From Nitrosopumilus sp. (GTDB taxonomy: Archaea > Thermoproteota > Nitrososphaeria > Nitrososphaerales > Nitrosopumilaceae): a stretch of DNA of 64,000 nucleotides. The position numbers and the translations under genes are program-made. Location: assembly GCA_029250275.1 (NCBI GenBank), contig JAPFBP010000002.1, positions 23,014 to 87,013 of the forward strand. The letters run 5' to 3'. The number at the start of each line of letters is the position of its first letter. The first letter of the stretch is position 1. Below, in pieces: positions 5,119-48,396 of the stretch. The notes below the pieces were generated by a model, which made no database searches, was not told where the DNA came from, and saw nothing but the letters and a program-made list of their open reading frames with translations.

Positions 5119-6882
5119 TTAGTAGATCGGTGAAATGTAAATGTGTTTTTTTACATCAATAATTCCACCAGAAAGAATTCTAACAGATGGTAGAGCCAAA
5201 AAAGGTAAGAATAATGGAATTAAGTGGGGTCTAGAAAATTTAGAACCTGAATCAACAATAGTATTATTGATTTTTTCAAAATTGGATAAAACTTTTTCAA
5301 AAGAATCTGTAGAAATGATACCACCAAACTGTAAAGGTAGTGAAGCAATAATTTTTCCAGATTTCACTACAACAAGACCTCCTTGATTCTTGATGAGATG
5401 ATTAGAGGCAACTGCCATATCAGAATCATTTGAACCAATTACGATCATGTCATTTTCATGGAAACTCCATGTCGAAGCAAAAGCACCGATATTTGCACCA
5501 AAATTTTCAAGAAATCCTATAGAATGCTTTTGATTTCCATAAATTCTATCAAATGCTGCAACTTTCCAAATATCAGAATCTAATGAAGCAGAAACATGAC
5601 CATCTTTAGAATGAAGTTCGGCAGAGCCTATCTTAGTAATAATTTCAGTTTGCATATAGATGGTATTTGCAATAACATCTTTCTTTTTTGATTTTATAAC
5701 AAAGTCATTTTCAGAGAATTTTTTTAATTTTACAGTTTTTTTAATCCAAGGTGAAATTATTTTTTTCTTGATTAATGTAACTAATTGTCCATTAGATACT
5801 ACAAGTTTGCCCCCAACAAAGACTTTGTTTGGTTTGAATGATTTTAAATCATCAAAAATTAAAATATCTGCCAATTTTCCAGGAGCAATACCACCAAGAT
5901 CTTTTCCCATGTTATAATAATCAAAATTATTTTTTGATGCCATAGTAACTGCATCTATTGGCTTTAGACCAAGTTTGATTGATTCTCTTATACAGTGATC
6001 TATATGACCAAATTTAGATATATCAAGTGGATCAAGGCCATCAGAACAAAACATTAACCGATTAAGATATGTTCCATGAGACAAAACATGTGGAATTATT
6101 TCCTTCAAATCACGTCTAATAGAACCCTCTCTGATCATTATCCACATTCCAAGACGTAATCTTTCTAAAACTTGATCAAAATTGATTGGTTCATGACAAG
6201 ATAGGATTCCAGATGAGACATATGCATTAAGTTTTTTCTCACTTGCACCAGCAGTATGTCCATTGATTATGCAATCACATTCCAACATGGATGAAAGTGA
6301 TTTCATTGTTTTTGGGTCACGTGAAGTAACTTTGGTCCAAGAAAAAACTTCACCTAATCCTAGTACATGTGGATGCTTTACTGCAGATTTTTCTTGTGAT
6401 AATGATAATGATTTACTACTACTAAATTTTGCATCTACTGGAAGACCCCCTGGAACTACTTGAAAAATTCTGATTGGAAGATTCTCACCAAGTTTTAAAA
6501 ATTCTTGAAAACCACGATATCCTGCTACACTTACAATATCAATAGGATCAGAAAATAGAGATGTTACACCACAAAGTAGAGCCTTTTTTGCAAATTCAGA
6601 TGGCAAAACAAATTGATCAATATGTAAATGCGGATCTGCAAAACCAGGACTAACATATTTTCCATTTACATCAATTACAATAGTTTTTGAACCAACAGTA
6701 TGTGTAGCGTCTGGACCAACATACGCAATTCTATCATTGACAATAGCAATCTGAATTTTTGGAATTATTTCCCGAGTATAGACAGACAATAATTTACAAT
6801 TTTTTAAAATCAGATCGGCTTTCTTATCACCCATCGCTACAGAGTTAAGAGATAAGATCGAATTTGCTAGGCTCGAAGTCAC
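5119..6882 (-). CDS. ade: Adenine deaminase
   Basis: PGFADPHLHID, GLGEVFSW, INGHTAG, HEP, REGS, FCSDG; C-terminal adenine deaminase domain. Confidence 0.9.
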   Translation of the reverse strand: MTSSLANSILSLNSVAMGDKKADLILKNCKLLSVYTREIIPKIQIAIVNDRIAYVGPDATHTVGSKTIVIDVNGKYVSPGFADPHLHIDQFVLPSEFAKKALLCGVTSLFSDPIDIVSVAGYRGFQEFLKLGENLPIRIFQVVPGGLPVDAKFSSSKSLSLSQEKSAVKHPHVLGLGEVFSWTKVTSRDPKTMKSLSSMLECDCIINGHTAGASEKKLNAYVSSGILSCHEPINFDQVLERLRLGMWIMIREGSIRRDLKEIIPHVLSHGTYLNRLMFCSDGLDPLDISKFGHIDHCIRESIKLGLKPIDAVTMASKNNFDYYNMGKDLGGIAPGKLADILIFDDLKSFKPNKVFVGGKLVVSNGQLVTLIKKKIISPWIKKTVKLKKFSENDFVIKSKKKDVIANTIYMQTEIITKIGSAELHSKDGHVSASLDSDIWKVAAFDRIYGNQKHSIGFLENFGANIGAFASTWSFHENDMIVIGSNDSDMAVASNHLIKNQGGLVVVKSGKIIASLPLQFGGIISTDSFEKVLSNFEKINNTIVDSGSKFSRPHLIPLFLPFLALPSVRILSGGIIDVKKHIYISPIY

Positions 6883-7234: not shown

Positions 7235-7428
7235 AGAAAGATCATATTGAAATTCCGAAACCATCTAGTAAGTTTCAAAAAGTCAATTGCAATGAATGTG
7301 GTGAACTACAAATAATTTATTCACATGCATCAACAAAAGTCGCATGTAATTCCTGTGGAAATACTATTTCAGAACCAACTGGATCAAAAGCCATAATTAA
7401 TGGTAAGATCTCAGGCAGTGCTGAGTAA
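7231..7428 (+). CDS. rps27e: 30S ribosomal protein S27e
   Basis: KVNCNEC..YSHAST.VACNSCG...EPTGSKA; ATGA overlap with L44e. Confidence 0.97.
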   Translation: MKKDHIEIPKPSSKFQKVNCNECGELQIIYSHASTKVACNSCGNTISEPTGSKAIINGKISGSAE

Positions 7429-40278: not shown

Positions 40279-41394
40279 TTAGTTTATTATTTTAATTTGT
40301 TTCTTAAATTCATTCCAACTTGATTTAGGATTGCCATCGTTGTTAATCATACCTGCACTACAAATGTAATGACTTAATCTTTCTACTATATGTTCACTAG
40401 TTCCGAAACCAGAACCTCCAATAGTAAGAGTATCATCTCCAATTATCGGAGCTTCAACTATACAGGTTCCTTCAGGTCGGTCATATTGTCTATACCAAGT
40501 AAAAAATTCTATTTGGGATTCATTTTCAGTGTAAAATTCAAAGGATTTTTTTAGAAATTCTGTTTGTACAGTTTCACTTCCTCCAATAAAATCAGAGGTA
40601 CTCCAACTAATCTCAAAAATTCCCACTTTTTTGTCGCCTGCCAAATCAAATATCTGTTGTAATTCTTCTTTTGCTTGTTGTGGAGTTTTTACAATATCAT
40701 TTAACGTATCAACTGGAGAATATGAAAAAGCAACAAAATCACCAATAGATAATTCTGTTACAATATATCGTAGATTTTTATTTAAAACCTGATCTAATGC
40801 AAATGCATTTCCTATTTTTACATCAGGGTGTTTTGATTTGATTTTATCATATACTCCATTGAATAATTCTTTATAGACAGGGATATTTTGCTCATAAAAT
40901 CTGAATTGTGATTCTGTTTGTCCTGCAAGAATTACAGTATCTATAATATCATACCTTGACAATATTTCATCTAACACACTAACAACTCTATCTTCACCTA
41001 TAGAATTAAGAGGTGGCTTTCCAATCCAATTGGGGAAAGGCCCAAGTGTTTCACCATTAATTATAGAAAAATATAGAGTAACTTTGAGATCATTTTTTTC
41101 ATTCAGACCCATCAAAATATCTGATTGTTGCCAATCAAATTCCCCACGTACTGGTTCAACTAGATTCCAAAAAAGATAGACATTACTTCTTCCAATTCCA
41201 GAATTAGATGCTTGGGAATAAACAGTATCTAATTCTCGTAAGGTAGTTGATTGGTTAGGTGAATTAATTACAAGACCAATTTTTTCATTTGTCTGCTGAG
41301 ATAAAATAGTATTAGTAGAAATACTCAAACCCAATACAATTGTAGCAATGACAACGCCTATGCCTACAACTATGCCTAGTAATTTTTTATCCAT
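40279..41394 (-). CDS. Membrane-anchored hypothetical protein, clan-A glycoside-hydrolase-like TIM barrel
   Basis: N-terminal TM helix; WNLVEPVRGEFDW and IFEISWS resemble GH-A barrels; tentative. Confidence 0.6.
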   Translation of the reverse strand: MDKKLLGIVVGIGVVIATIVLGLSISTNTILSQQTNEKIGLVINSPNQSTTLRELDTVYSQASNSGIGRSNVYLFWNLVEPVRGEFDWQQSDILMGLNEKNDLKVTLYFSIINGETLGPFPNWIGKPPLNSIGEDRVVSVLDEILSRYDIIDTVILAGQTESQFRFYEQNIPVYKELFNGVYDKIKSKHPDVKIGNAFALDQVLNKNLRYIVTELSIGDFVAFSYSPVDTLNDIVKTPQQAKEELQQIFDLAGDKKVGIFEISWSTSDFIGGSETVQTEFLKKSFEFYTENESQIEFFTWYRQYDRPEGTCIVEAPIIGDDTLTIGGSGFGTSEHIVERLSHYICSAGMINNDGNPKSSWNEFKKQIKIIN

Positions 41395-41440
41395 GTAGGT
41401 TCAAAAAGAAATGAAAGTAAAAGAGTTGTGATTCTGTTGA

Positions 41441-44092
41441 TTATCCAGAAGTACAACCACTGTAGCCACATTCAATACACATACTACAACCCTCTACAAA
41501 GACTAGAGTGTTTTTACATGTTGGACATAAACGAGCTTCAGAAACATTTTCTCGTATTTTAGGTTTAATTTGGATTTCATCGTCATGAATTTTTAATGCT
41601 AATGAAGCACCAACTTGGGATTTGATGTATGGATTTGTGATATTTTCATTAACATATGCTGTCATGTACGCACTTGGTGTTACCTCAAATGTCTTTGTTG
41701 CATTCTCACTTGTCATGTGAAGAACTTGTTTGTGTCTTGAACCATCACGATATACAGTCATTCCTTTTAGTCCTATTTCGTGGGCAAGTAGATATGCAGA
41801 TTTAACATCATCGACTGTTACATCATATGGCATGTTGATTGTTTTTGCAATTGCATTTCCAATCCAATCTTGCCATACACCTTGAGCCATTAGATGATCA
41901 GCCCAATGAATATCCATTGCTGTAACAAAGACATCTTGCATCCATTGTGGAATTTCGGCCAATCCTTTCACTGAACCATAGTTGTCTGCAATCTTTTCAA
42001 GAATCTCATCTGAGTAGAGACCTTCTTCTTTGAGGGCATCTTCAAGAATCTTGTTTGTATAGAAGAATCTTCCAACAGTAACTCTCTTTTCAAACACTAA
42101 AGCAAATGCAGGTTCCATCCCGTTTGAACAGTCTGCAATCATAGATAGTGTTCCAGTTGGTGCTACTGTGGTAGTTAAGACATTTCTAATACCATGTTTT
42201 TTGATTTCTTCAATGAGTGACTCCCATTCATATGAATGAGATTCTTTTGATTTCTCATAGTAGCCAGATATTGGAATCTTTCCTTCAGGATATTCTGTCT
42301 TTGCACAAAGTGTGAATTCACCACGAGATCTTGCAAGTGCAACACTTTCTTCCATAGAATAGTATGTTAGGGCTTCAGAGAGTTTTGATTGGAGTTCATA
42401 TCCTTCTTGAGAATTATATGGGATTTTCAATCTGTACAATAAATCAGCTACCCCCATTACTCCAAGTCCAATTCTTCTAGACTCTTTTGAGGCTACACTA
42501 ATTTCTGGTACTGGATAATTATTGACATCAATAATATTATCCAAAAATCTTGTTGTCTTTCTGATAATCTCTTCATATCCTTGCCAGTCAAATTCATAGG
42601 ATCCATCTGCTTGTCTTTTTGCAAGATTTACCAGATTGATAGAACCCAAGTTGCATGATTCGTACGGATAGAGGCTTTGTTCACCACATGGATTTGTAGC
42701 TCTAAGTGGTGCTTTTCTTGCTTTAGCAAATACATTATATTTGTTAATTTGATCAAAGAAGATCAAACCAGGTTCTGCACTCTTCCATGCAGATAATGCA
42801 ATTAGATCAATTAGTTGATGTGCATTGATTTCTTTAACAGGTTTTCTGTCACGTGGACTACGTAAAATATAGTTACCATCAGTAGTGTTAACAAGTGCAT
42901 TCCAAAAGTCTTCCCAGATTCCAACACTTACATTGAAATTTTCTAGAACGCCTGGTTCTGTTTTGTTTGTGATAAATTTTTCAATATCAGGATGCCATGC
43001 TTCAATGATTCCCATGTTTGCACCACGTCTTTTACCACCTTGTTTTACAACTTCAGTTACAGTATTGATGATATTCATGAAAGATACAGGACCAGATGCA
43101 ACACCAGAAGTTGATGCTACAATGTCACCTTCTTCACGAAGATTAGAGTAGTTGATTCCAACTCCACCACCTGATTTGAAGATTAATGCTGCATCAGAAG
43201 TAGTTTTCATAATTTCTTCCATGCCATCATCCATACCAAGTACAAAACATGCTGAAAGTTGTCCTAGTCTTCCACCAGCGTTCATCATAGTTGGTGAATT
43301 TGGTAAGAAATCTTGTCCAGTCATCATTGTAAAGTATTCAGTAATTTTATCTGAATAACTTTCAAGTTTTTTTCCTGCTAGTAATGTCAATAAAACTTTG
43401 AAACTTACTTTCATCTGACCTTTGTTTGCAAGGGTCACATAGTGAGTAATTAAAGATCTAAAATGCCATTTATTAAAGAAATAATCTCCAACTTTGAATT
43501 TATAATCAAAGGCATCTAGTTTTTCAAGATAAGATTTTGCTTCATCTATATCCTGCTTATTATTTCCAGATTTGTCAAAAATTTGTGAATCATATAGCAT
43601 ATCACCAATTCCGACTAGAATTGCAACTCTTTCAAACATTTGAGTTGGTGATTCAATAATCTCACTTTTTCCATTTCTGAAAAGATATCTTGAGGCTAAT
43701 ACTCTCAGGCAGTTCAAATCAAATTTTTTGGAGACTGGATCAAGGGCTTTAAGATTTAAGACCTTCATTTTTTCATCTCTTAATTTTCTTCTTTCATGTC
43801 TGTAAACGATGTATGCTTTTGCAATATCGCTATTGCCGCTATCGATTAAAGTTGATTCTACAATATCTTGAATATCTTCAACTGTAGGTACTCTAGAGCT
43901 TGTAAATCCTTGCTCTACTAACTTGTTAACTACATCTGCTGCAAGTTTGTCGGCTACGCCACGGTCGGCTTTAGAGGTGGCTGCCAATGCCTGAAATATG
44001 GCATTTGAAATTTTATCTTTATTGAAAGCCGTGACTGCGCCACTGCGCTTACGGATCTCATTGATCGTACTTTCTATTTGTGAATTGTCCAT
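41441..44092 (-). CDS. nrdJ: Adenosylcobalamin-dependent (class II) ribonucleotide reductase with N-terminal ATP cone
   Basis: IRKRSG..FNKDKI (ATP cone), FLPNSPT, QLSACFV, ATNPCGEQ, ESCNLGSIN, TVAPTGT, C-terminal C..C...C..CGYSGC. Confidence 0.97.
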   Translation of the reverse strand: MDNSQIESTINEIRKRSGAVTAFNKDKISNAIFQALAATSKADRGVADKLAADVVNKLVEQGFTSSRVPTVEDIQDIVESTLIDSGNSDIAKAYIVYRHERRKLRDEKMKVLNLKALDPVSKKFDLNCLRVLASRYLFRNGKSEIIESPTQMFERVAILVGIGDMLYDSQIFDKSGNNKQDIDEAKSYLEKLDAFDYKFKVGDYFFNKWHFRSLITHYVTLANKGQMKVSFKVLLTLLAGKKLESYSDKITEYFTMMTGQDFLPNSPTMMNAGGRLGQLSACFVLGMDDGMEEIMKTTSDAALIFKSGGGVGINYSNLREEGDIVASTSGVASGPVSFMNIINTVTEVVKQGGKRRGANMGIIEAWHPDIEKFITNKTEPGVLENFNVSVGIWEDFWNALVNTTDGNYILRSPRDRKPVKEINAHQLIDLIALSAWKSAEPGLIFFDQINKYNVFAKARKAPLRATNPCGEQSLYPYESCNLGSINLVNLAKRQADGSYEFDWQGYEEIIRKTTRFLDNIIDVNNYPVPEISVASKESRRIGLGVMGVADLLYRLKIPYNSQEGYELQSKLSEALTYYSMEESVALARSRGEFTLCAKTEYPEGKIPISGYYEKSKESHSYEWESLIEEIKKHGIRNVLTTTVAPTGTLSMIADCSNGMEPAFALVFEKRVTVGRFFYTNKILEDALKEEGLYSDEILEKIADNYGSVKGLAEIPQWMQDVFVTAMDIHWADHLMAQGVWQDWIGNAIAKTINMPYDVTVDDVKSAYLLAHEIGLKGMTVYRDGSRHKQVLHMTSENATKTFEVTPSAYMTAYVNENITNPYIKSQVGASLALKIHDDEIQIKPKIRENVSEARLCPTCKNTLVFVEGCSMCIECGYSGCTSG

Positions 44093-44095
44093 TAT

Positions 44096-44113
44096 AATCT
44101 CCCCGCAGAGATT
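44096..44113 (-). promoter_or_regulatory. Possible hairpin covering the nrdJ Shine-Dalgarno sequence
   Basis: mRNA AAUCUCU-GCGG-GGAGAUU-AUA-AUG; 7-bp stem (1 GU pair) contains GGAG. Confidence 0.35.
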
Positions 44114-44354
44114 AAAATTTTAGATGGTATAAACTATTTGTCGGATTTTCTCAAAACTTTGATTCAATAAAATTGACAATGCTACAATCAACGTTGGAGT
44201 GGTCTCACAAGAGAAATTTTTTATAAATTCATAACGATGATCGTACAAGACTTTTTTCATAACTGATCTGTTAATAGGCAACAATAATCGTTATATCTAA
44301 AATTGATCAAAAAGTTTTAAATAATGATCGGAACTAGGTTTTCATTTACGATTT

Positions 44355-46520
44355 TCAAACAACATAAGGTGACTTGCATTTTGGACACTTGTCATCAAAT
44401 GGTTCATCTTTGAAACCACATTCACCACAAATTGAAGTAGGTCTAACAGGTTTAAACGAAGGTATTAGTTCAGATGTTTTCTCTATTGATTTTTTAATAT
44501 CCTCAACTGTTGCATTTTTATCAATTTGTAATGTAACTAGCAAGCCACCATTAAGTAATTTTGAGAGTTTATTACACTCAGAGATAGGCTCACTTTTTGC
44601 AGTATAATTAGAAACTTCTGAAGCATTAACTACAATGCCTTGAGAATAGAAATCAGTATCCATGGAATTTAGACTGGAATTTTTGCCGTATTTCTCACCA
44701 TCAAGGGTTGCAAAACGGGCAGATCCTTCAGTTTCAGTCATAGAAATAGCCACTGTGTCGCCTAGTTCTTTGCCTTTTTTGGCACTAACGTCTACTGCAG
44801 TTTCAATGACTTTGTAAAGAATATCACGTCCTTCTTTATTATTTTGGAATCCAAGTATGTTAAAAACAGCCTCTTTGAGTCCTACCAAATTTACAACAAG
44901 GGATACAGAACTTCTCTGCATGTATTGTGTATTCTTTGCAAGGATTGGGTTAAGTCCTCTTCGTGTTAGATCTGAGATCGCTTTCTTTCTTAATGCCATA
45001 GAAACCAAAGCTGGTTTCATCAATAAAGCAAGTCTTGCCCTAAAGTAAGTTTCGTCTTTGTTTGATTCAAATGCTAATCTTGGAAGATTGATTGAGACAG
45101 ATTGCAAGATAATTGAAAGAGGGCCAGATACCTTTGTAGAACCATTTGTAATGCCATGACTAGATGTTTGACCTTTAGCAAACATTACTTTTCCACCTAG
45201 GGATAGAATTTCGGCTGCTGCTTGTGATACATCAGTAATCTTTCCTTTATCGATATCAATTATTAAACCAATTTTTGGAATTGGTGTAATCTTTGTATAA
45301 TTTTTGTATGCATTAATAATTGCATTAATTATTTTTGTATCAATTCCTAATTGTAAACGAATTGAAACATTAGTACTATTTTTATTATATTTTGAAGTTG
45401 TTGATGAAATTGCAAACGTATCAGTTAATTTTTGTTCTAGTTCTGGAATAGATTTTGAATGTTTTGCAAATAATGGAACTAACCCATCAAGAACAATTTC
45501 TTGTGAAGCTTCTTTTGAAAGAAGAGCGATAACTACAGATAGTGAACTTGTAATTTCATCTAATTGTTTTGATGTAGACATTCTTGATACATCAAGATAT
45601 TTTCCTCCAAGATCAACACCATCTTCAATTAATTCTTTAATGTTAACAAATATTGTATCAGGAATCATGGACCAAATTCCAGGATTAGAAATGTGTAAGT
45701 CGCCAGAAAGATGCGAGTCTGCTACATCTTTAGGTAAAACGTTTGTAAGAAGGTGTTCAGCAAATACTCTCTGCCCAGCATTAAATAATAATCCCTCAGC
45801 ACCATTATTCACATCGTCTAGATTGGAGATCATCTCTTGAACATCATAAACAGGCATACCTAGGCGTGCAAGTTTGTTCCTATATTCTTCATGTCCATGC
45901 TCAAGCAGGACAGAATTTACCATTTCTCTAATTAATGCACCAGTTAGATAGGTTGTCTGATATTTGTAAATTCTATTTTCAACTTCTTCAGTAATTTTTT
46001 GTGCTAGTTCTAGTGGAAGGCTTCCTTCTCGGACTAGAGATTGAATGATTTTGTGTGAATTAAATTCTTCAATTGATTCAGATGATGTTCTAACATACAT
46101 CTTTCCACTTTCAATAATTGATCTTTCTTCAATTTGTCTTGCTAAACTCAAAACAAGTTTTCCAAGATTAGTAATAGTGTAACGTCTTTCAGATTTATTT
46201 AGTGCAACAAGTGATTGTCTAAGTAATTTTCTCAAGTGATATGCAAATTTTCCACTTTCTTTTTTTGATTTGAAACCAGCCAATGATTTTAATTCAGAAT
46301 AAGTTAATGGGCCTTTAGAATTTAGAATTCTGAGAATATCAATTCTATTAGGACTTGCCATGACAGAAAAGATCATTCTGACACGTTTTGAGGTAGATTG
46401 TAAGATTCCACCTCTCTTTGGATCAGAGTCGTCTAGATCATCATCCGAGTCTAGATCTAATTCAGTATCATCCAAATCAGCATTAATGTCTAGGTCTAAT
46501 TCCTCTTCGGTTTGTTTCAC
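44355..46520 (-). CDS. wHTH + ATP-cone + class III RNR (NrdD)-fold protein lacking catalytic Cys and the glycyl-radical loop
   Basis: ArsR-like wHTH (NRIDILRIL..LTYSEL..FAYHLRKL), ATP cone, NrdD-like HLSGDLHI, SINLPRLA, VGLKEAV, RFATLD, NGG; ends at the zinc ribbon. Confidence 0.85.
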   Translation of the reverse strand: MKQTEEELDLDINADLDDTELDLDSDDDLDDSDPKRGGILQSTSKRVRMIFSVMASPNRIDILRILNSKGPLTYSELKSLAGFKSKKESGKFAYHLRKLLRQSLVALNKSERRYTITNLGKLVLSLARQIEERSIIESGKMYVRTSSESIEEFNSHKIIQSLVREGSLPLELAQKITEEVENRIYKYQTTYLTGALIREMVNSVLLEHGHEEYRNKLARLGMPVYDVQEMISNLDDVNNGAEGLLFNAGQRVFAEHLLTNVLPKDVADSHLSGDLHISNPGIWSMIPDTIFVNIKELIEDGVDLGGKYLDVSRMSTSKQLDEITSSLSVVIALLSKEASQEIVLDGLVPLFAKHSKSIPELEQKLTDTFAISSTTSKYNKNSTNVSIRLQLGIDTKIINAIINAYKNYTKITPIPKIGLIIDIDKGKITDVSQAAAEILSLGGKVMFAKGQTSSHGITNGSTKVSGPLSIILQSVSINLPRLAFESNKDETYFRARLALLMKPALVSMALRKKAISDLTRRGLNPILAKNTQYMQRSSVSLVVNLVGLKEAVFNILGFQNNKEGRDILYKVIETAVDVSAKKGKELGDTVAISMTETEGSARFATLDGEKYGKNSSLNSMDTDFYSQGIVVNASEVSNYTAKSEPISECNKLSKLLNGGLLVTLQIDKNATVEDIKKSIEKTSELIPSFKPVRPTSICGECGFKDEPFDDKCPKCKSPYVV

Positions 46521-46633
46521 TGGTGTTTCTAAATTTAATACAGTAAATAAGACTTGCGACTAGATAATTTATTCATACTTTTGATTTAATGTCTTAAAAA
46601 TAAAAAATAAGATCTAATAAAGATCATTTTTAT

Positions 46634-46795
46634 TTAATTTTCTTGAACATCAAGTGAAAATTCTGATGTAGAAAGTTTCTGTCCACATGATGGACACTTT
46701 CCATTTGTTGGATTTAGTACATCTTTAAGAGATTTTAACATTTTCATGGTTGTGATCTTTTCTCCACATTTACCACATGTAATTTCTACTGACAT
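46634..46795 (-). CDS. 53-aa zinc-ribbon microprotein, not in ORF track
   Basis: Manually translated: MSVEITCGKCGEKITTMKMLKSLKDVLNPTNGKCPSCGQKLSTSEFSLDVQEN. Confidence 0.8.
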   Translation of the reverse strand: MSVEITCGKCGEKITTMKMLKSLKDVLNPTNGKCPSCGQKLSTSEFSLDVQEN

Positions 46796-46865
46796 GAATG
46801 TGATTAGATATACAAAATAATTAAGAAACGATTTTGATTTTTTTTAATGATTCAAGCAAATTATT

Positions 46866-47231
46866 TTACTGTTTTTCAATGATGATTCCGCGTTCATCAA
46901 AACCAGTAATATGGGCTCTTGTTCCAACAGGTAGTTCTGCAGGGGTAGCAATTCTTGCCATGAATCCAGATATTCTTAAATCTGTATTATCTAGTTGAAG
47001 TATAACAAAAGCATATGGAGTGTATTTTTCAAAGCCAGCAGGTGCCACAGTAATTATTGTATAAGTGGCAATTGAGCCTACACCATCTAAAACAACATCC
47101 TCAAATCCCTTGCTACCACATTTTAGACAATAATATGCTGTAGACAAATGAAGATAACCACACTCAGTACATTTGTGAGTTAGAAGCTTACCTTGTTTAG
47201 CATATTCAATAAGTTGTTCTTCGACAGTCAT
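46866..47231 (-). CDS. DUF35 Zn-ribbon/OB-fold protein (thiolase partner); start set at ATG 47231
   Basis: CTECG...YCLKCGS, G.IATYTII..P.GF...PY; starts 1 nt after the thiolase stop. Confidence 0.92.
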   Translation of the reverse strand: MTVEEQLIEYAKQGKLLTHKCTECGYLHLSTAYYCLKCGSKGFEDVVLDGVGSIATYTIITVAPAGFEKYTPYAFVILQLDNTDLRISGFMARIATPAELPVGTRAHITGFDERGIIIEKQ

Positions 47232-47232
47232 T

Positions 47233-48396
47233 TTACACACTTTGGAATATATGAACAGCACAACTTGCACCAGTTGCACCAAAGTTGTGGGTTAAACCAA
47301 TTTTTGCATTTTTAACAGTTCTTGCACCAGCTTTTCCAGTTAATTGATCAAATACTTCTACTACTTGTCCAACTCCTGTTGCACCAATTGGATGTCCTTT
47401 TGATTTAAGACCACCTGATGGATTAATAGAAATGTCAGAATTTAATGCCGTTCTACCTTCACGAACAGCTTGAACACCTTGACCTTTATCAAAGAATCCC
47501 AAATCTTCTGTGTCAATTATTTCTGCAATTGTAAAACAATCATGTACTTCAGCAAAGTCAATATCTTTTGCAGTAATACCTGCCATTTTGTATGCATCTG
47601 CTGCTGCAATCTTTGTACTAGGGATTGTTGTCATGTGTTCACGTCCTTGTAATGCGGCAGGTGAACCACCTCTACCAGAACCAATTACTTCAATATAGTC
47701 ACTACCATTTTCTTTTGCAAATTTTTCAGAACAAAGAATAACAGAACTTGCACCATCAGAGAATGGACAACAATCATAAAGTTTTAGTGGACTTGCAACT
47801 ACTGCAGAATTCATTACATCATCAATAGTAATTTTCTTTTGCATGTGTGCTTTTGGATTTAAAAAACCATTGTTGTGATTTTTTACTGCAACTGCTGCAA
47901 AGTCTTCTTCAGTTGCATCAAACTCTGTCAAGTAAGCTCTTGCCATTGATGCAAACAAACCTGGAAATGATGCACCTGCTTGACCTTCATAGAAAAAATC
48001 AGAACAATATGCAAAGTAAGTTGTAGTCCATTCAGTTCCTGTGTGAGTTACTTTTTCAACACCAGTAACAACTAGACAATCATAAAATCCTGCTGCAACA
48101 TTGGCATATGCTTCTCTAAAAGCTACAGAACCACTTCCACACGCAGACTCTATTGATAATGATGGTTTATCTGGAATTCCTAATCTGCTCATTAAAACAG
48201 GACCAAGATGTACCTGTTTATCAGCAACACCAAAGACGTTTGAAATGTAAGATGCTTTGATATCTTTTGGAGAAATTCCTGCACTTTCTATGGCTGCAAC
48301 TGAAGCCTGAGTAGTAATATCAGCAATACTTTCACTTAATTTTCCATATTTCGTACTACCAGCGCCAAGAACACAAACCTTTTCCACAAATGTCAC
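47233..48396 (-). CDS. Archaeal-type acetyl-CoA acetyltransferase (thiolase)
   Basis: ESACGSGS, GVEK, KNH, DGAS, EVHDCF, NPSGGL.SKGHPIGATG. Confidence 0.95.
   Translation of the reverse strand: MTFVEKVCVLGAGSTKYGKLSESIADITTQASVAAIESAGISPKDIKASYISNVFGVADKQVHLGPVLMSRLGIPDKPSLSIESACGSGSVAFREAYANVAAGFYDCLVVTGVEKVTHTGTEWTTTYFAYCSDFFYEGQAGASFPGLFASMARAYLTEFDATEEDFAAVAVKNHNNGFLNPKAHMQKKITIDDVMNSAVVASPLKLYDCCPFSDGASSVILCSEKFAKENGSDYIEVIGSGRGGSPAALQGREHMTTIPSTKIAAADAYKMAGITAKDIDFAEVHDCFTIAEIIDTEDLGFFDKGQGVQAVREGRTALNSDISINPSGGLKSKGHPIGATGVGQVVEVFDQLTGKAGARTVKNAKIGLTHNFGATGASCAVHIFQSV

Follow-up and report, generated by a model that had tools for sequence, protein, structure and literature searches.

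A catalytically dead anaerobic ribonucleotide reductase joined to a winged helix-turn-helix and an ATP cone: a candidate nucleotide-sensing regulator of nrdJ in ammonia-oxidising archaea

In a 64-kb stretch of DNA from Nitrosopumilus sp. (contig JAPFBP010000002.1; the window, below, means this whole stretch), a gene at 44355..46520 on the minus strand encodes a 721-residue protein that resembles NrdD, the class III or anaerobic ribonucleotide reductase (RNR), and that lies directly upstream of nrdJ, which encodes a class II (B12-dependent) RNR. The question raised by this locus is what such a protein does there. We found that it is a dead NrdD joined to a winged helix-turn-helix (wHTH) and an ATP cone, and we consider a nucleotide-sensing transcription regulator of nrdJ to be the best reading of it, and a probable one. 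The family to which this protein belongs is a widespread and strongly conserved candidate for the control of RNR expression in archaea. The window is AT-rich (G+C around 31%), and its closest relatives are Nitrosopumilus metagenome-assembled genomes (MAGs) with 96-97% protein identity. The open reading frame (ORF) starts with GTG and runs for 721 codons plus a stop; ATG and GTG interchange at the same aligned position among orthologs, which supports this start.

What is the protein made of? The initial annotation, drawn from the sequence alone, described an acidic N-terminal tail, an ArsR-like wHTH, an ATP cone and an NrdD-like barrel. All four were found again by Pfam, AlphaFold and Foldseek, and the motifs it quoted are all present (HLSGDLHI at residues 270-277, SINLPRLA at 476-483, RFATLD at 602-607, NGG at 657-659, and PISECNK). 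The tail (residues 1-38; 46407..46520, on the minus strand like every other gene and element located below) is rich in Asp/Glu and Leu and is predicted to be disordered, with a predicted local distance difference test score (pLDDT) below 50; its length varies between species, and it is absent outside Nitrosopumilaceae. It is followed by an ArsR/SmtB-like wHTH (residues 45-138; 46107..46388), supported by Pfam, fold matches and the ratio of nonsynonymous to synonymous substitution rates (dN/dS), and by an ATP cone of the YVRTS subtype (residues 140-225; 45846..46103), supported by PF03477, fold matches, alignment and dN/dS. Fold and alignment then delimit an NrdD-type alpha/beta barrel without the radical residues (residues 240-690; 44451..45803), and a C-terminal zinc ribbon of four cysteines (C698, C701, C712 and C715; 44358..44450) closes the protein, the ORF stopping 6 residues further on. 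In Pfam terms, HTH_20/DUF7347 matches residues 50-124 (32.9 bits for HTH_20 against a cutoff of 27), the ATP cone PF03477 matches residues 141-213 (35 bits against 25.8), and the best stretch for NRDD is residues 472-717 (E 3e-27).

A sequence search of the PDB with the 721-residue protein gave only marginal NrdD matches, so that a structure prediction was required. The full AlphaFold2 model, built from 46 diverse homologs, has a mean pLDDT of 87.6 and a predicted template modelling score (pTM) of 0.80, with disorder only at residues 1-38. When it was compared with the PDB by Foldseek, the first 36 matches were all NrdD (E down to 1e-21, template modelling (TM) scores up to 0.66), including those of S. 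thermophilus, T. maritima, P. copri and phage T4 at 11-19% identity, and class I RNR structures ranked far behind. By this comparison, the protein has the ten-stranded alpha/beta barrel fold of NrdD. A model of residues 40-236 (pLDDT 86) matched ArsR/SmtB wHTH repressors and ATP cones. The wHTH matches were YgaV, CadC, SmtB, CzrA and HlyU (TM 0.6-0.72), sharing the canonical ArsR/SmtB architecture of wing and recognition helix, and the cone matches had NrdR on top, followed by the cones of NrdB, NrdA and NrdD. The structure prediction that the initial annotation had called for thus agrees with its domain reading, in that the barrel is a true NrdD fold and the N-terminal module combines an ArsR-type fold with that of NrdR. 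In the alignment, the cone carries YVRTS in place of the canonical KR(D/S)G, a subtype that it has in common with the genuine archaeal NrdD P0262, and it retains the canonical F, K-I, IxxxVxxxL and YR positions.

Can such a protein still perform radical chemistry? It contains only five cysteines (649, 698, 701, 712 and 715), the last four of which form the CxxC...CxxC ribbon, and there is no RxxG[YFW] motif anywhere in the 721 residues. The initial annotation had therefore counted the cysteines correctly, and it was also right that none stands at an active-site position and that the ORF stops after the zinc ribbon with no RxxGY. For the family as a whole, E. coli NrdD and P0262 were aligned with 98 full-length, diverse relatives drawn from a 50%-clustered search (27-72% identity). 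The position of E. coli C175 (C79 in T4) is Thr289 in the window protein and is a cysteine in 0 of the 98 members. That of the finger-loop thiyl cysteine C384 (C290 in T4) is Gln451, in a column that holds a cysteine in 1 of 73 scorable members and is otherwise unconserved. The glycyl-radical domain (G681 in E. coli; RVxGY) is absent from the window protein and its subgroup. Since these residues are lost across the 98 relatives, we are not dealing with a local lesion, and the earlier view of the protein as a pseudo-enzyme extends to the family, in which both cysteines are gone and the glycyl-radical domain is missing or decayed. The active-site Asn of the NLPR motif (N478) is near-invariant across the family, and HxxGxIH, R602...D607, Y625, G658-G659 and the four ribbon cysteines, which align with E. 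coli C644, C647, C662 and C665, are kept in the window protein, so a pocket scaffold persists without the radical residues. The proposal that the protein keeps the nucleotide-binding sites of an RNR stands, therefore, only for the active-site Asn and several pocket motifs.

Profile scores tell a similar story of decay. Against TIGR02487, the NrdD equivalog model, the window protein reaches 92.6 bits where the cutoff is 326, and it falls far below the cutoffs of all curated NrdD equivalogs. NrdD-model scores run from 258 bits in Bathyarchaeia through 181 in Odinarchaeia, 93 in the window and 46 in Nitrososphaeraceae to 29 in Conexivisphaera. A Bathyarchaeia subgroup (740-780 residues) has a recognisable, degenerate tail (for example, GRSSAIYIPLTLWPEGKK vs SRITGYYQNIKGWDKGK) in which the Gly is usually replaced, and a third subgroup lacks even the zinc ribbon. 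A decay series is thus visible, including vestigial glycyl-radical tails. An activase is missing as well. No window ORF of at least 80 residues has the CX3CX2C radical S-adenosylmethionine (SAM) motif, and tblastn found no match to NrdG or to a glycyl-radical domain in the 64-kb window, as the initial annotation had noted for NrdG, or in 80 related loci. These are the loci kept from a genome scan, all from Nitrosopumilaceae species, taken with 10 kb on each side (1.36 Mb of flanks), and they are the 80 loci referred to throughout. An ancestral archaeal NrdD with an ATP cone gained an N-terminal ArsR-type wHTH and lost the thiyl cysteine, the second cysteine and the glycyl-radical domain.

Several proteins met along the way are worth recording. 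The glycyl-radical-domain probes gave weak matches only to the C-terminus of NrdJ (41441-41530), a Cys-rich segment resembling a zinc ribbon (CPTCKN...CSMCIECGYSGC). At L087/L088, a gene for a 352-residue radical-SAM protein, for which only PF04055 is recorded, lies two genes upstream of a family member without the zinc ribbon (P0129); the protein is much longer than NrdG of E. coli (154 residues). P0262 (1206 residues, from a metagenome), the genuine archaeal NrdD nearest to the family, has an intact SRITGYY glycyl motif and an insert of around 430 residues at the finger-loop Cys-Cys, which we read as an intein and cut out for the alignment. P0265 (730 residues, also from a metagenome) is an NrdD-like protein with tandem ATP cones and no HTH. 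Its residue at the C175 position is Thr, it lacks a finger-loop cysteine, and its RDTGHM tail is degenerate, so dead NrdD barrels also exist without an HTH.

How widespread is this arrangement? The query matches more than 4,000 proteins when these are clustered at 90%, and 1,293 clusters at 50% identity, and the number of GTDB species genomes with a relative is at least 576. The family ranges over Nitrososphaerota, Bathyarchaeia and Asgard archaea, with named members in Nitrosopumilaceae, Nitrososphaeraceae, the cultured Conexivisphaera calida (WP_174447857.1), Bathyarchaeia, Odinarchaeia and Baldrarchaeia. Several clearly archaeal members (L019, P0302, P0324 and P0413) come from contigs that carry bacterial labels (Phycisphaerales, Dormibacteraeota, [Eubacterium] cellulosolvens and Acidoferrales), which are probably binning or contamination errors in public MAGs. 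In databases, members appear under the enzyme names "anaerobic ribonucleoside-triphosphate reductase" and "ribonucleoside-triphosphate reductase (formate)", and also as "ArsR family transcriptional regulator", "helix-turn-helix domain-containing protein" or "DUF7347 domain-containing protein". The two enzyme names are incorrect, and the suspicion that this protein would be mis-annotated as an anaerobic RNR is borne out by the names of its relatives. The aerobic life of ammonia oxidisers, which had been offered as the context for the lost chemistry, fares less well. The family is also found in Bathyarchaeia, Conexivisphaera and Asgard archaea; as it reaches beyond aerobic ammonia oxidisers, aerobiosis does not account for the loss.

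Which parts of the protein does selection protect? Among 79 Nitrosopumilaceae orthologs, with dS around 1, the HTH is 99.9% identical at the amino acid level (dN/dS 0.009) and the ATP cone 96.5% identical (dN/dS 0.026), followed by the barrel at around 83% (dN/dS around 0.10) and the zinc ribbon at 81% (dN/dS 0.09). When 46 members representing every subgroup are compared, HTH, cone and linker hold the invariant columns. By these values, every part is functional and constraint centres on the DNA-binding and nucleotide-sensing modules, a pattern that is the reverse of an enzyme's and typical of a regulator.

The neighbouring gene points in the same direction. The nrdJ gene (41441..44092) starts 262 nt past the end of the regulator, on the strand that both share, and encodes an 883-residue class II RNR with an ATP cone of its own; it scores 710 bits against TIGR02504 (cutoff 400) and is intact, as first described. 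It is the only DNA-precursor enzyme gene visible and is presumably the regulatory target. In 78 of the 80 loci, nrdJ is directly downstream on the same strand, the exceptions being one rearranged locus and one contig end, and the same adjacency is seen in a Nitrososphaeraceae MAG (56% identity) and in a lineage with 72% identity. The survey suggested by the initial annotation therefore revealed conserved synteny in Nitrosopumilaceae and in two further lineages of ammonia oxidisers. The family is, in short, under purifying selection, widespread, and syntenic with nrdJ in ammonia oxidisers.

Other genes accompany the regulator on its upstream side. A 53-residue ORF with a double-CxxC zinc ribbon (MSVEITCGKCGEK...CPSCGQ...; 46634-46795) lies between the regulator and a gene pair encoding a thiolase and a ChsH2-type OB-fold/zinc-ribbon protein (46866-48396). 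In almost every one of the 80 loci, tblastn places this small ORF immediately upstream of the regulator, and L093 and L094 have a call for it as well; too short for the usual ORF length filters, it matches no Pfam family above cutoff. Across Nitrosopumilaceae, the thiolase/OB-fold pair keeps its synteny with the regulator, and it lies near distant members too (L084, L087 and L092).

If the protein regulates nrdJ, are there sites for it to bind? The 262-nt spacer between the two genes (44093..44354) contains conserved cis-elements. Footprinting of the spacer across 78 loci revealed a TATA box, a Shine-Dalgarno (SD)-like GGGGAGA, a conserved proximal block, and a composite element of around 60 bp that begins 25 nt after the regulator stop codon (AAAACTAGTTnCGATCATTTTTnAAAACTTTTTGATCAGTTTCAGAnnnnGCGATCATCGT) and contains three GATCA boxes at spacings of 21 and 18-20 nt. 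In the window, box 1 (CGATCAT, 44324..44330) stands 25 nt past the stop codon and box 2 (TGATCA, 44304..44309) 21 nt from box 1; box 3 (ACGATCATCGT, a 4-1-4 palindrome at 44234..44244) lies at around -150 from the nrdJ ATG and is near-invariant in Nitrosopumilaceae. There is an additional AGATCAG at 44263-44269. Closer to nrdJ, around 35 nt upstream of its TATA box, a deeply conserved element (TTGTCAATTTTATTGAAT, 44162..44179) fits the pattern G-TGT(C/A)nA-N6-TGA, or TGTCAA-N5-TTGA. It is kept down to the lineage with 56% identity and is, besides TATA and SD, the sole element upstream of nrdJ that is common to all lineages. The core promoter and leader of nrdJ (44098..44133) comprise TTTATA at 44128-44133 (around -40) and GGGGAGA at 44098-44104. 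The regulator has its own promoter, a block formed by a transcription factor B recognition element (BRE) and a TATA box (TCTAGTCGCAAGTCTTATTTACT, 46542..46564) that is near-invariant in the 80 loci, with two GATC elements upstream of it (46611..46625). In relatives, arrays of up to 12 (A/T)TGATC(A/T) boxes lie upstream of the regulator promoter, the last one abutting the BRE.

GATC occurs at 16.2 per kb in the regulator-nrdJ spacer and at 27.1 per kb in the non-coding region upstream of the regulator TATA box. The remaining 287 intergenic segments of these loci average 3.2 per kb, and only 1.1% of them reach 16 per kb or more. Within the 1.36 Mb, there are 77 phased GATC triples, all at two places: 58 in the spacer (in 54 loci) and 19 at the regulator 5' end or promoter. 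GATCTAG, CTAGT and GATCA are 8- to 20-fold enriched at the spacer and the regulator promoter, and the phased GATCA pair is unique within the 64-kb window. In the locus in which nrdJ has been relocated (L016), nrdJ retains box 3 at -152 together with the proximal block, and boxes 1 and 2 behind the regulator have decayed. The boxes thus behave as 5' elements of nrdJ. Specific repeated DNA boxes accompany the regulator, both at its promoter and at that of nrdJ, and two candidate operators emerge from the alignments, namely the clade-specific GATCA arrays, shared with the putative autoregulatory region, and the deeply conserved TGTCAA-N5-TTGA.

Other signals near nrdJ were less promising. At around 44186-44205, there is an imperfect palindrome (CAACGTTG in the window) that remains palindromic despite sequence change between lineages, with variants such as TATGAAnTTCATA, TACAAT-N4-ATTGTA and CCAAT-N4-ATTGG. 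We rejected TATGAAnTTCATA as an operator because it differs from one lineage to another, whereas the HTH does not vary. A 6-bp stem named by hand at this palindrome shows weak covariation and two competing registers, so the palindrome may be a hairpin or else a site bound by another factor, and RNAalifold predicted no structure for the region from -140 to -58 upstream of nrdJ. An Rfam scan of 41000-47500 gave no match, and thus there is no riboswitch in the nrdJ leader. The spacer has no canonical NrdR box, and matches in the window are at chance level.

GATC is also frequent elsewhere. The DNA encoding the acidic tail (46361-46454) has the densest GATC cluster of the 64-kb window, with 5-6 per 262 nt and GATCTAGAC occurring twice, and the GATCTAG heptamer found there also abuts the BRE in relatives; this cluster may be a by-product of Asp-Leu codons, on account of which longer tails trivially have more GATC in their coding DNA. 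The idea that longer tails are traded off against smaller GATC arrays at the promoter was unsupported (rho -0.04). A GATC-rich segment at 7235-7410 was discarded because it is unphased and holds short genes. An adenine deaminase gene (5119-6882; purine salvage) has GATC-dense, unphased stretches within and upstream of it.

Are the two genes used? Contigs from four marine metatranscriptomes cover both the regulator and nrdJ at 90-99% identity, and both genes are therefore transcribed. Contig depth, a crude measure of expression, was 2-60 for the regulator and from 20 to around 1,000 for nrdJ, with a drop across the spacer in three of the runs. Given that nrdJ has its own TATA box and SD, the two genes are probably separate transcription units.

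From all this, we infer DNA binding, sensing of ATP/dATP (and perhaps other (d)NTPs) and control of nrdJ. The protein would probably dimerise through its NrdD barrel, and its ATP cone would read the state of the adenine nucleotides, ATP versus dATP, while the retained substrate or effector pocket might read (d)NTPs. A change in conformation or oligomeric state driven by nucleotides would then alter the grip of the two HTHs on helically phased repeats, both at the promoter of the regulator itself and in front of nrdJ, with the three GATCA boxes and the TGTCAA-N5-TTGA element as candidate operators. In this manner, transcription of the B12-dependent RNR could be tuned to the supply of deoxynucleoside triphosphates (dNTPs), following the logic of bacterial NrdR with other parts. 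The candidate sites lie upstream of the nrdJ TATA box. Archaeal sites in that position are more often associated with activation or looping. In a bolder version, the family is the missing archaeal counterpart of NrdR, an independent invention that serves Nitrososphaerota, Bathyarchaeia and Asgard archaea as master regulator of their dNTP supply and that targets nrdJ directly in the most abundant archaea of the ocean. This version is possible, although we would not call it probable.

A number of observations weigh against regulation of nrdJ by nucleotides, and some of them favour a rival explanation. The cone has Arg-Thr where Lys-Arg is canonical, which leaves its predicted ligand preference uncertain. 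The metatranscriptomic support, limited by the crudeness of contig depth, includes one contig that bridges the spacer. The GATCA boxes could be bound by another factor, and there is no GATC in the spacers of L092 (72% identity) and L084 (56%) despite a virtually identical HTH and an adjacent nrdJ. GATC boxes are kept at the regulator's own promoter in L092 and L093. Therefore, either the GATCA array is not the cognate operator, or the control of nrdJ through it is clade-specific. Furthermore, in the distant loci examined outside the ammonia oxidisers, whose contexts come from single look-ups, the gene adjoins no RNR gene, so the regulon may cover nucleotide metabolism more broadly. For instance, pyrB/pyrI lie within around 2 kb of the family gene in three lineages, one Bathyarchaeia copy sits between a nucleoside phosphorylase and a Bmp-type nucleoside transporter, another has a YfbR-like HD phosphatase (dNMP phosphatase) nearby, and an Odinarchaeia copy is near RFC and RadA; no such theme was seen around the C. 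calida copy and one further group. It is thus conceivable, if on balance unlikely, that the protein is a DNA-binding nucleotide sensor with global control over nucleotide or DNA metabolism, or a chromatin-associated factor, with nrdJ being one target among several or a historical linkage. Near-absolute invariance of the HTH would suit a factor with many targets. This view, however, has to accommodate the presence of nrdJ directly downstream in nearly all Nitrosopumilaceae loci and in two deeper lineages, and the restriction of the phased boxes to the regulator and nrdJ within the flanks scanned.

The remaining alternatives place the function elsewhere than in transcription, or add to it. The barrel might be an enzyme with a new, non-radical activity, the HTH making it a bifunctional "trigger enzyme". 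GlyXL provides a precedent (bioRxiv 10.1101/2024.10.14.618325), and the barrel is under purifying selection and keeps its pocket (N478, R602, D607, Y625 and GG); we nevertheless regard this as improbable, as the barrel is the least conserved part, its NrdD score drops from 258 to 29 bits across lineages, the zinc ribbon and tail are lost in some of them, and the 46 members have no new invariant polar constellation. Nor is there any GlyXL-like sequence, fold match or partner gene, as detailed below. A post-translational role, in which the protein binds NrdJ or sequesters nucleotides and the HTH serves for protein contacts, would agree with the frequent regulation of active enzymes by related pseudo-enzymes and with the position of the gene beside nrdJ. 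But NrdD and NrdJ are of separate RNR classes whose dimer interfaces differ, a canonical wing and recognition helix are present in the HTH, and repeated DNA boxes are conserved at both promoters, all of which makes this option very improbable. Lastly, a working class III RNR receiving its radical from a separately encoded glycyl-radical protein, with an activase elsewhere in the genome, could draw on the retained NrdD fold and zinc ribbon and on reports that some ammonia oxidisers persist at very low oxygen. With both active-site cysteines missing in the relatives, no thiyl radical would be possible even if a radical were delivered, and the low profile scores and the lack of NrdG or a glycyl-radical domain in the window and the 80 loci argue the same way; the missing cysteines effectively refute this option, and we give it next to no chance.

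We therefore return to a nucleotide-sensing regulator of nrdJ. If this reading is correct, an allosteric enzyme has been turned wholesale into a transcription factor that keeps its allosteric sensor, and the allosteric machinery (the cone and perhaps the effector or substrate pocket) gates DNA binding rather than catalysis. The candidate occurs in globally abundant ammonia oxidisers and is represented by thousands of metagenomic proteins, and concrete candidate operators together with a ligand hypothesis make the question directly testable. Regardless of function, the label of an anaerobic ribonucleoside-triphosphate reductase can lead metabolic reconstructions astray; genomes of ammonia-oxidising archaea, Bathyarchaeia or Asgard archaea could, for instance, be credited with anaerobic DNA synthesis. 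Enzyme-derived one-component regulators are a known kind; what is new here is a version derived from an RNR that would follow NrdR-like logic. In the searchable literature, we found neither a prior description of this wHTH, cone and dead-NrdD architecture nor another RNR-derived HTH-enzyme regulator.

How does it compare with the systems that are known? In the MocR/GabR regulators, an HTH is joined to an aminotransferase scaffold that serves as sensor, with a fold unlike that of NrdD. RbkR, an archaeal kinase and regulator (PMC5397151), similarly reuses an enzyme scaffold as the ligand sensor of a one-component regulator, again with a different fold. ArsR/SmtB proteins share the fold of residues 45-138, with HTH_20 above its cutoff; they are, however, metal-sensing dimers of around 100 residues, whereas the presumed sensor here is an RNR-derived module of 580 residues, and the NCBIfam ArsR model NF033788 gives 24.7 bits, below its cutoff of 55. 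GlyXL (PDB 2HA9) is an oxygen-tolerant NrdD-like protein without catalytic residues that takes part in glycine synthesis (bioRxiv 10.1101/2024.10.14.618325). Like the archaeal protein, it is derived from NrdD, has lost the glycyl radical and both cysteines, and works aerobically, but it lacks both HTH and ATP cone and forms part of an enzyme together with GlyXS, an ACT-domain partner. We found no similarity to 2HA9 by phmmer (E up to 1) or among the 50 fold matches listed, and no ACT-domain partner gene, the neighbours being the 53-residue zinc ribbon, the OB-fold/thiolase pair and nrdJ.

The closest parallels are the two proteins whose features it combines. With the ATP-cone NrdDs of P. copri and S. 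thermophilus and with P0262, it shares the barrel fold, linker, zinc ribbon and cone subtype; it differs in lacking the thiyl cysteine, the second cysteine, the glycyl-radical domain and NrdG, and in the added wHTH. In P. copri NrdD, ATP or dATP at the cone shifts a dimer-tetramer equilibrium and gates substrate binding (PMC11226230), a response that would offer a ready-made nucleotide switch. With NrdR, it shares an ATP cone linked to a DNA-binding domain and a location with or near RNR genes, and NrdR structures are the top fold matches of its N-terminal module. In NrdR, nucleotide-dependent oligomerisation governs binding to phased boxes (PMC9110341, PMC12051234), and NrdR binds helically phased repeats upstream of RNR genes and of its own gene, whereas the archaeal protein is only associated with such boxes. 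NrdR is also much smaller, at around 150 residues, with an N-terminal zinc ribbon that binds DNA and no barrel, compared with 721 residues, an ArsR-type wHTH, a dead NrdD barrel and a C-terminal NrdD zinc ribbon; homology is limited to the cone, and the canonical NrdR box is missing here, where different repeated boxes are found. Few archaea possess NrdR (PMC9110341), and the regulator role is thus left open in them. By these comparisons, the archaeal protein would work like NrdR yet stands outside the NrdR family, and it descends from NrdD yet is not an RNR.

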